DNA from: Escherichia coli
GTDB lineage: Bacteria; Pseudomonadota; Gammaproteobacteria; Enterobacterales; Enterobacteriaceae
NCBI RefSeq assembly: GCF_003334255.1
Contig: NZ_QOWU01000151.1
Reading direction: 5' to 3' (one strand)
Length of the DNA: 1,744 nt
The notes below the pieces were generated by a model, which was not told the DNA's origin, made no database searches, and worked only from the letters and a program-made list of their open reading frames with translations. A program made the position numbers and the translations under genes. Below are positions 273 through 655 of the stretch, one piece after another (positions within the stretch are counted from its first letter, which is position 1; the number at the start of each line of letters is the position of its first letter).

Positions 273-293
273 GGTGTGGCCTCTACGTGTGTA

Positions 294-306
294 AGTTTTG
301 AAAACT
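294..306. promoter_or_regulatory. 13-bp inverted repeat AGTTTT-G-AAAACT, candidate operator upstream of the 51..272 gene
   Basis: Perfect 6-bp arms around a single central base, 22-36 nt upstream of the minus-strand start codon and just 5' of its SD. An arm length of 6 bp is expected about once per window by chance, so the location is the main support. Confidence 0.3.
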
Positions 307-317
307 CACCATCCAGA

Positions 318-327
318 GCTGCGAAAC
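318..327. repeat. direct repeat GCTGCGAAAC, copy 1 (copy 2 at 494..503)
   Basis: Exact 10-mer present twice within the 383-bp intergenic region. Confidence 0.3.
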
Positions 328-449
328 TGTGGGTGGCGAGACGTACGAGGTTCGCAGTACCGGCAAACGCAGAACCCGGCCCGACCGAAGTCGGCCCCGT
401 ACGCCCCACCATAATTCGTGTGCGAAAAAGACGTGGCGATACAGTACGC

Positions 450-472
450 ACAAAAAAACCGCTGGCGCGGTT
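450..472 (-). terminator. candidate Rho-independent terminator on the minus strand
   Basis: Minus-strand RNA reads AACCGC-GCCA-GCGGUU (6-bp stem with 4 GC pairs, 4-nt loop) followed by UUUUUGUG; the plus strand has a run of seven A at 452..458. The stem is short, so this is tentative. It is not a plus-strand terminator, since the plus-strand 3' flank is GTGCGC. Confidence 0.35.
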
Positions 473-493
473 GTGCGCTACGTTTGTCAGCAG

Positions 494-508
494 GCTGCGA
501 AACCCGGC
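494..508. repeat. direct repeat GCTGCGAAAC copy 2 (494..503), fused to AACCCGGC (501..508), which also occurs at 373..380
   Basis: 494..503 is identical to 318..327. 497..508 (GCGAAACCCGGC) matches 369..380 (GCAGAACCCGGC) at 10 of 12 positions. Confidence 0.3.
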
Positions 509-569
509 ACCCGTTTTATGAGGTGCAGCGGAAATGTAACCCGACACGACGAGCGCTGGCAAGCGGTTT

Positions 570-597
570 TTGTGTTGCGTGCTGATGTGGTTAGAAT
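570..597 (+). promoter_or_regulatory. candidate sigma70-type promoter for the 656..1120 gene
   Basis: -35 TTGTGT (570..575, 3/6 to TTGACA), 16-bp spacer, -10 TAGAAT (592..597, 5/6 to TATAAT). Predicted start of transcription near 604, about 50 nt upstream of ATG 656. Weak -35; unverified. Confidence 0.3.
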
Positions 598-655
598 GTT
601 GCGAATTAATATCACCTGGCAACTGGTGATTGTCTGCATACGCGGGGTGTTTCTG

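Follow-up and report, generated by a model that had tools for sequence, protein, structure and literature searches.

An IsrK–C4 RNA cassette, probably an immunity locus of the P4/P1/Gifsy-1 type, in the early operon of a P88-like prophage of Escherichia coli

The intergenic region and its predicted RNAs

We analyzed a 1744-nt stretch of E. coli DNA (contig NZ_QOWU01000151.1; hereafter the window) and, within it, the region located between two divergent genes at positions 273–655. All 1744 bases are 100% identical to positions 5347147–5348890 of the chromosome of E. coli DETEC-S792 (NZ_CP116067.1; locus L001), the parent genome in what follows. The element that hosts the window is a P2-family prophage integrated beside dmsABC; among named phages, P88 and other members of Xuanwuvirus (Peduoviridae) come closest to it. 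The early operon of the prophage lies on the minus strand and includes, in this order, the genes for an exonuclease, a Dam methylase and a DUF4406 protein, then a gene of 154 amino acids (aa) inserted on the plus strand, the region under study, open reading frames (ORFs) of 73 and 138 aa, and the replication endonuclease gene A. As an earlier note on this sequence had described it, the region spans 383 bp between the minus-strand 73-aa ORF (ORF73, 51–272) and a plus-strand ORF starting at ATG 656. The hairpins and repeats listed in that note are present, and the plus-strand frames are for the most part free of stops across 300–520, as it states: the stops of one frame lie at 519 and further on, those of the second at 292 and 412, and the single stop of the third at 299. 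Its description of the region as GC-rich does not fit: the G+C content is 55.1% in 273–655 and 54.5% in the window, and only an 88-nt core, the C4 sequence described below, reaches 64.8%.

Comparison with related loci shows that the region is composite. The segment 262–583 accompanies ORF73 in all 80 related viral contigs and is conserved at 83–94%, while 576–655 is present only in the 8 of these 80 loci that also carry the 154-aa gene. Hence, as judged from its distribution and sequence, 273–583 is an RNA cassette, while the last ~72 bp (584–655) belong to the plus-strand gene. The length and orientation given in the earlier note for an unusually long gap between divergent genes thus stand, but the gap is not a single unit.

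Two Rfam families are matched above their gathering scores in the cassette, both on the strand of the downstream genes, and both matches were recovered again in the parent genome. The first is an IsrK-like small RNA at 452–526 on the minus strand (RF01394; 67.2 bits against a gathering score of 50; model positions 1–77 of 77), a homologue of P4 seqA and of the P1 a1/b1 leader. Its predicted layout consists of two 5′ hairpins followed by an intrinsic terminator (stem 472–457, U-run 458–452) that is conserved in the 57 aligned loci, and its helices are 99–100% paired among 54 distinct sequences. It carries two short segments that recur further downstream: a1 (501–495), in the loop of hairpin 2, and b1 (486–478), just before the terminator and 6 nt upstream of its stem. 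A consensus scan predicts a sigma-70 promoter for the cassette at 533–562 on the minus strand, with a −35 hexamer TTGCCA (562–557), an 18-nt spacer and a −10 hexamer TACATT (538–533), both hexamers being invariant or at least 90% conserved across the 57 loci. The promoter-like site ends 7 nt before the 5′ end of IsrK, and the predicted transcript start is G526. The isrK promoter of Gifsy-1 has the same layout, position +1 lying 7 nt past the −10 hexamer and coinciding with the start of the Rfam isrK match (numbering from PMC4825925). The −35 hexamer of the window is embedded in a conserved element, ACCGCTTGCCAGCG (window 550–575), which is 88% complementary to the IsrK terminator region (450–466).

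The second match is a C4-type antisense RNA at 329–416 on the minus strand (RF01695; 80.4 bits against a gathering score of 45; model positions 1–87 of 87), homologous to c4 of P1 and P7, to the CI RNA of P4 and to STnc1160/orf45 of Gifsy-1. C4 of P1 and P4 is a stable RNA of ~77–80 nt that is cut from a longer precursor by RNase P. Here, the predicted RNA comprises a 17-bp closing stem (411–395 with 350–334), a UUCG hairpin (394–381) and a second hairpin (380–359), with a minimum free energy of −45.4 kcal/mol on the minus strand (z = −3.49). All 27 stem pairs are 100% paired in the 54 distinct sequences, and 4 of them show compensatory double changes. On the plus strand, folds of the same DNA are weaker and the Rfam scan gave nothing credible.

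Two segments of C4 are available for pairing: b′ (374–364), inside the 12-nt loop of the second hairpin, and a′ (357–351), which is single-stranded between hairpin 2 and the closing stem. Their putative targets lie downstream on the same strand. For a′ the target is a2 (319–325), where UUCGCAG, identical to the core of a1, pairs with CUGCGAA (local duplex, −10.5 kcal/mol). For the loop b′ it is b2 (281–291; local duplex, −14.1 kcal/mol), the 3′ end of which covers G283, A282 and G281 of the Shine-Dalgarno sequence GAGG (283–280), placed 7 nt upstream of the ATG of ORF73 (272). The Shine-Dalgarno sequence is kept in every locus while the neighboring b2 bases vary. When the 25.7-kb prophage region was searched for further C4 targets, single "a"-like heptamers were found, and no paired a and b site beyond the two sets a1/b1 and a2/b2.

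The gene following b2, ORF73 (51–272, minus strand), belongs to the family of the P4 epsilon "derepression protein". It matches phrog_3688 (E = 3e-41), and the PHROG match is reciprocal, P4 epsilon also finding phrog_3688; direct comparison with P4 epsilon by BLASTP gave E = 8e-9 with 32% identity over 50 aa, and the Pfam family Derepression (PF25738) is matched with an independent E-value of 3.7e-7. The P88 record labels the homologue of ORF73 "derepression protein", and among phage records the 73-aa ORF occurs in nine only, all of them P88-like. The ORF carries a clear coding signature, with 17, 20 and 45 variable columns by codon position and a synonymous fraction of 0.69. P4 epsilon inactivates the C repressor of P2, its target being a repressor protein and not DNA. 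In the parent prophage, a helix-turn-helix protein encoded at L001 17293–17634 is taken to be the C repressor. Family scans of ORF73 gave no match to a DNA-binding domain, so that the role of DNA-binding factor at this locus, which the earlier note had considered for the 73-aa protein, is unlikely. We regard ORF73, on the grounds of its similarities, as a candidate epsilon-like anti-repressor that is unrelated to Ant. Next on this strand is the 138-aa ORF, which shares 4 nt with the beginning of gene A; gene A lies ~480 nt downstream of ORF73. NCBIfam and PADLOC scans of ORF73 and of the 138- and 154-aa ORFs returned nothing.

Evidence that the C4-type RNA pairs with its targets came from comparison. 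We aligned 57 distinct-context copies of the cassette: the window, two tandem copies from E. coli G1/2, P88 and 53 IMG/VR loci. Variation is concentrated in six segments (a1, b1, b′, a′, a2 and b2), which hold 50 of their 84 columns as variable ones, against 55 of 182 outside them. At least six "a" types and about fourteen "b" types occur, in many combinations, and in nearly every sequence a1 equals a2 and the complement of a′, while b1 approximates b2 and the complement of b′. Variable positions therefore change together so as to preserve RNA pairing. In the a2/a′ helix (helix 9), 4 of 8 positions are changed on both sides, with 3–4 pair types each; in b2/b′ (helices 7 and 8), 6 of 11 positions are, with up to five pair types and 89–97% of cells paired. 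Helix 6 never varies and is uninformative for covariation.

These figures were compared with those of shuffled alignments. For the folds together with the C4–a2/b2 pairing, 98.0% of cells are paired, against 89.8% in shuffles, and the covariation score is 0.243 against 0.082; none of 500 shuffles reaches it, and slid controls give only 39–46% of paired cells. For the pairing of a1/b1 with C4 the corresponding values are 95.2% against 66.6% and 0.664 against 0.121, again with none of 500 shuffles reaching the observed score, and with up to five pair types per position. The suggestion of the earlier note that the region is a regulatory hub or non-coding RNA locus is borne out by the two Rfam families, the promoter- and terminator-like sites, this covariation, and the lack of codon periodicity in the sense frames described below.

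Known immunity systems and the proposed mechanism

The order of elements found in the window recalls three known systems. In satellite P4 (PLE – seqA – CI RNA/seqB – seqC – … epsilon … alpha), the isrK model falls on seqA and the C4 model on the CI RNA, their order and strand being those seen here. P4 likewise has a single RNA complementary to two targets, one on its upstream and one on its downstream side; the RNAs are crossed by an open "Ash" frame, and the same operon continues with an epsilon-family derepression protein and a replication gene. The two loci differ in that an Icd-like ORF and other genes separate CI from epsilon in P4, whereas here the epsilon-like ORF comes directly next, with its Shine-Dalgarno sequence inside b2. 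Moreover, the replication gene is the alpha primase in P4 and a P2-type gene A here, and P4 is a satellite while the window belongs to a full P2-family phage. The P4 ORF downstream of CI matches phage_ICD_like (NCBIfam), and ORF73 and the 138-aa ORF do not. As the 138-aa ORF has no similarity to P4 orf151, the parallel with the P4 operon ends at epsilon. Control by premature termination is the mechanism of P4.

The immI operon of P1 and P7 (a1 b1 – c4 – a2 b2 – icd – ant1/2) shares with the window the C4 family, the order a1, b1, b′, a′, a2, b2, the overlap of b2 with the ribosome-binding site of the ORF that follows, and the placing of specificity differences in the a/b segments. For the latter, the comparison of P1 with P7 by Citron and Schuster in 1990, cited in PMC12197685, is reportedly the precedent. 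P1 and P7 are plasmid prophages, unlike the integrated prophage studied here, and the output of their immI is an anti-repressor (PMC8546580). A P1-type immI operon proper was ruled out as an identity for the locus: icd and ant are missing, and ORF73 is of the epsilon family instead.

The third system, isrK – orf45 (STnc1160) – anrP of the lambdoid phage Gifsy-1, has a mechanism worked out by experiment (PMC4825925). As in the window, isrK and C4 Rfam matches stand in tandem with the same promoter geometry, an AUG in GAAUUAUGG lies at the 5′ end of C4, a2/b2-like sites precede a gene of anti-repressor type, and a short IsrK and a long transcript share complementary segments. The published Gifsy-1 model is one of IsrK activating in trans. 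Hfq binding and mutually acting short and read-through isoforms of IsrK are known for Gifsy-1 only (PMC4825925).

Based on the Rfam matches, the covariation and these similarities, the identification of 273–583 on the minus strand as an IsrK–C4 cassette appears to us very nearly secure. That it serves as an RNA immunity cassette of the P4/P1/Gifsy-1 type, with pairing between C4 and its targets, in the early operon of a P2-family, P88-like prophage, we consider probable. The detailed mechanism is put forward with more reserve, as a scheme that is somewhat favored. A transcript from the conserved promoter would begin at about G526, and part of the transcripts would stop at the intrinsic terminator, giving an IsrK-like RNA of ~75 nt. 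Read-through transcripts, or transcripts from an early promoter, would contain C4, which, by analogy with P1 and P4, would be cut out and accumulate. In the lysogen, C4 would bind a2/b2 and hide the ribosome-binding site of ORF73, blocking translation of the epsilon-like anti-repressor, and polarity or premature termination would also silence the 138-aa ORF and gene A. ORF73 would then be the gene directly gated by C4, as we infer from the analogous systems. The a1/b1 copy in IsrK may represent a second target or a decoy tuning the amount of free C4, as IsrK does in Gifsy-1, and the a/b types would define immunity specificities between related prophages, as between P1 and P7, a role that the diversity of matched types would fit. 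The mechanistic details for P1 and P4 follow general background and the citations given in PMC4825925, PMC8546580 and PMC12197685.

Several observations weigh against this scheme. Promoter activity, RNase P processing and the choice between translational block and premature termination are taken over from P1, P4 and Gifsy-1, and the downstream genes of two of these systems differ from those found here. In P1 and P7, icd and ant follow C4, whereas NCBIfam detects no Icd-like or Ant-like protein at the present locus. In Gifsy-1, orf45 has 45 codons and its stop overlaps the start of anrP, while the corresponding frame of the window runs for ~147 codons through ORF73; the cargo there is AnrP, which is lacking here, and the epsilon-like ORF73 has a Shine-Dalgarno sequence of its own. 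The fold energy of IsrK taken alone is no more stable than that of shuffles (z = −0.84), and the c4-a1b1 motif model (RF03163) stays below its threshold in the window (20.5 vs. 46.7 bits), scoring 48.1 bits in Gifsy-1 and 44.1 bits in P4. When whole molecules were compared with RNAduplex, 163 of 500 mononucleotide shuffles for C4 with its target, and 46 of 500 for C4 with IsrK, were equally good or better. As RNAduplex ignores intramolecular structure, it was replaced by local duplexes and covariation; the evidence for pairing is hence comparative, not energetic. Finally, in a recombinant locus (L003, 167–490) the a1/b1 of IsrK (TTTCCAC and AAACGAAG) mismatch the C4 of the same locus (a′ TTGAGAA, b′ CTTTGCTCT) while its a2/b2 match, which indicates that the interaction of a1/b1 with C4 is dispensable, at least transiently.

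The same RNAs could act as they do in P4: C4 would pair with a1/b1 and a2/b2 on the nascent transcript and cause premature termination upstream of ORF73 and gene A, the replication gene rather than translation of the anti-repressor being the main target. We judge this unlikely, yet it deserves serious weight. The isrK–C4 order is that of P4, b1 is placed just upstream of the IsrK terminator stem, and gene A follows ORF73 at a short distance on the same strand; in P4, CI is cited as a termination factor acting via seqA and seqC (in PMC4825925). The overlap of b2 with the Shine-Dalgarno sequence in every locus points instead to translational occlusion, as in P1, and no minus-strand terminator-like site is predicted between a2 and ORF73. 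The two modes are not exclusive, as an untranslated leader would be open to Rho.

Coding frames and the divergent gene

One property of the region was missed by the earlier note: a minus-strand frame has no stop at all within 273–655. In the parent genome this frame is a 368-codon ORF (L001 11969–13075) that covers window bases 1075 to 1 and runs on past base 1, overlapping ORF73 out of frame and running antisense to the 154-aa gene. The open "Ash" frame is headed by an invariant AUG within GAAUUAUGG (410–412, minus strand), at position +115 of the predicted transcript and inside the 5′ end of C4; its counterpart by position in Gifsy-1 is the first AUG of orf45, at +107 (PMC4825925). It is therefore necessary to consider whether 273–655 is protein-coding on the minus strand, either from AUG 412 or over the 368 codons, and encodes an "Ash family" protein. 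From AUG 412, the frame is open for 147–150 codons in 73 of 84 copies, reading through ORF73 out of frame. Distinct stop sites among variants number 0 in this frame and 10 and 8 in the two other sense frames, a difference that is only suggestive given shared ancestry and linked sites. The homologous orf45 is reported to be translated (PMC4825925), and in another locus (L086) the RefSeq annotation pipeline PGAP calls the region a pseudogene of an "ash family protein". In a homology search for a conserved coding frame, the kind of finding that would have spoken for a protein here, the only match was a weak one to Pfam Phage_ASH (PF10554; independent E-value 7.8e-4).

The pattern of substitution makes a protein improbable. 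Upstream of ORF73, no sense frame has codon periodicity: variable columns are distributed 34/34/37 by codon position, with synonymous fractions of 0.30, 0.31 and 0.30 for the three frames, in contrast with the values given above for ORF73. Within ORF73, changes in the alternative frame are overwhelmingly non-synonymous (1705 synonymous vs. 14682). The frame is cut short in 7 copies (to 16–65 or 142 codons) and runs to 283 codons in one, while three more reach the locus end; what substitutions preserve is the RNA pairing, not the peptide. In P4, the Phage_ASH model (81.7 bits) spans exactly the seqA–CI RNA region. P4 immunity at this region is RNA-based. Since the model covers precisely these RNAs, the Pfam family looks like a translation of conserved RNAs. 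It is nonetheless possible, by analogy, that passage of ribosomes through the Ash frame is needed without selection on the peptide, because its AUG is shared with orf45 and translation of orf45 is required for downstream expression in Gifsy-1 (PMC4825925).

The record of P4 itself (L083, 8168–8710, minus strand) still annotates a 137-aa "cI gene product/transcriptional repressor" over the CI RNA. The C-terminal third of this ORF is Icd-like (NF033153).

On the other side of the cassette, the plus-strand gene of 154 aa (656–1120) matches phrog_6315 (E = 1.6e-65, from residue 6) and lies within the early operon as an insert in the opposite orientation. Its final 27 bases are shared with the 3′ terminus of the DUF4406 gene, which converges on it (1094–1408, minus strand). 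The region 584–655 on the plus strand, which is outside the RNA cassette and co-occurs with the 154-aa gene only, in 8 of the related loci, is its presumed promoter and 5′ untranslated region. It includes a −10-like hexamer, TAGAAT, at 592–597, and an inverted repeat, ATCACC-N8-GGTGAT (610–629), 27 nt upstream of ATG 656, a repeat that accompanies the 154-aa gene instead of the RNA cassette.

On the attachment-site side of the prophage, the small RNA STnc130 is matched between the integrase gene and dmsA (Rfam, 124.8 bits; L001 18771–18905, minus strand).

The 154-aa gene is given another start in RefSeq: the PGAP coding sequence in NZ_CP116067.1 (12473–13120 of locus L001) begins at window GTG 473, within a plus-strand frame open from 302 to 1120, and would make 473–655 coding. 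This start would add 61 residues overlapping IsrK on the opposite strand. We find it hardly believable, as the alignment of the 152-position PHROG profile begins at residue 6 of the protein starting at ATG 656, PGAP itself picks ATG 656 in a 97%-identical genome, and 473–583 is conserved in more than 70 loci without the 154-aa gene. ATG 656 is the credible start. The statement of the earlier note that 273–655 holds no credible ORF thus survives testing, neither the GTG 473 call nor the Ash frame having a coding signature.

An ordinary divergent promoter/operator region, with hairpins and repeats bound by a regulator, for instance the 73-aa protein, would agree with the divergent genes, the inverted repeat at 610–629 and the one promoter-like site in the gap, but it is highly implausible, given that the repeats seen in the earlier note (GCTGCGAAAC twice and CTACGT.TGT.AG twice) are exactly the RNA target copies a1/a2 and b1/b2, that ORF73 is of the epsilon anti-repressor family without a DNA-binding domain match, and that the 610–629 palindrome belongs to the neighboring gene cassette.

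Immunity types and significance for P2-family prophages

The cassette is widespread in the species: it was found in 1162–1283 of 5426 complete E. coli genomes, that is, in about a fifth of them, with up to four copies each and 1430 chromosomal copies in all. With respect to the a/b types of co-resident prophages, two cases are informative (the tandem copies of L002, and L016 with L075 in one genome); the types differ in both, as chance alone would usually give.

Two loci show rearranged cassettes. In E. coli G1/2 (L002, 3299–4581), two complete isrK–C4–ORF73 modules stand in tandem with differing a and b types, CGCA/TAGCAAAG in one module and TTCCA/AACGAAG in the other. RefSeq gives the second ORF73 of this locus as a truncated 54-aa "derepression protein". 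In L082 (86–409), the second hairpin of C4 is duplicated, resulting in two b′ loops of types CTTTGCTCT and CTTGTGTAG, and only the second fits b1/b2.

Going one step further, P88-like prophages may carry a two-site RNA "barcode" immunity, in which at least six "a" and ~14 "b" specificities assort independently, while the conserved open frame starting inside C4 is kept open for ribosomes to traverse, a translation-coupled control as with Gifsy-1 orf45. We advance this tentatively, as a proposal whose chances we put somewhat below even. If true, each a/b combination would determine which resident prophage can switch off, in an incoming relative, the genes for the epsilon-like anti-repressor and for replication, and tandem modules with differing barcodes (L002) or a duplicated C4 loop (L082) would be ways to widen or to escape immunity. 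The literature on P2-family phages, as searched, contains no account of such barcode immunity.

The kind of system described here is well known. The intergenic DNA matches 128 phage records at 60–80% identity, and in one of these, LC710660.1, among Stx-converting/lambdoid phages, "isrK Hfq binding RNA" and "C4 antisense RNA" are annotated under the match, in a different phage family and with other downstream genes. At least one Stx phage record thus names the isrK–C4 pair already, and the gain from the present analysis is incremental. In literature searches for P88 and Xuanwuvirus, a description of the cassette was not found.

Recognition of the RNAs corrects existing gene calls. In RefSeq, the DNA of the cassette is left unlabeled, given to an over-extended hypothetical protein or marked as a pseudogene of an "ash family protein", and ORF73 is named inconsistently as "hypothetical", as "derepression protein" or in a truncated 54-aa version. 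The co-varying a/b pairs, in turn, represent a ready-made natural set of matched RNA regulator/target pairs.

For the P2 family, the proposed immunity function would place antisense-RNA immunity in the style of P1 and P4 in ordinary prophages, immediately ahead of an epsilon-like anti-repressor and a replication gene. P88 is inducible by mitomycin C (PMC5285337), and the cassette may explain the inducibility of P88-type phages.

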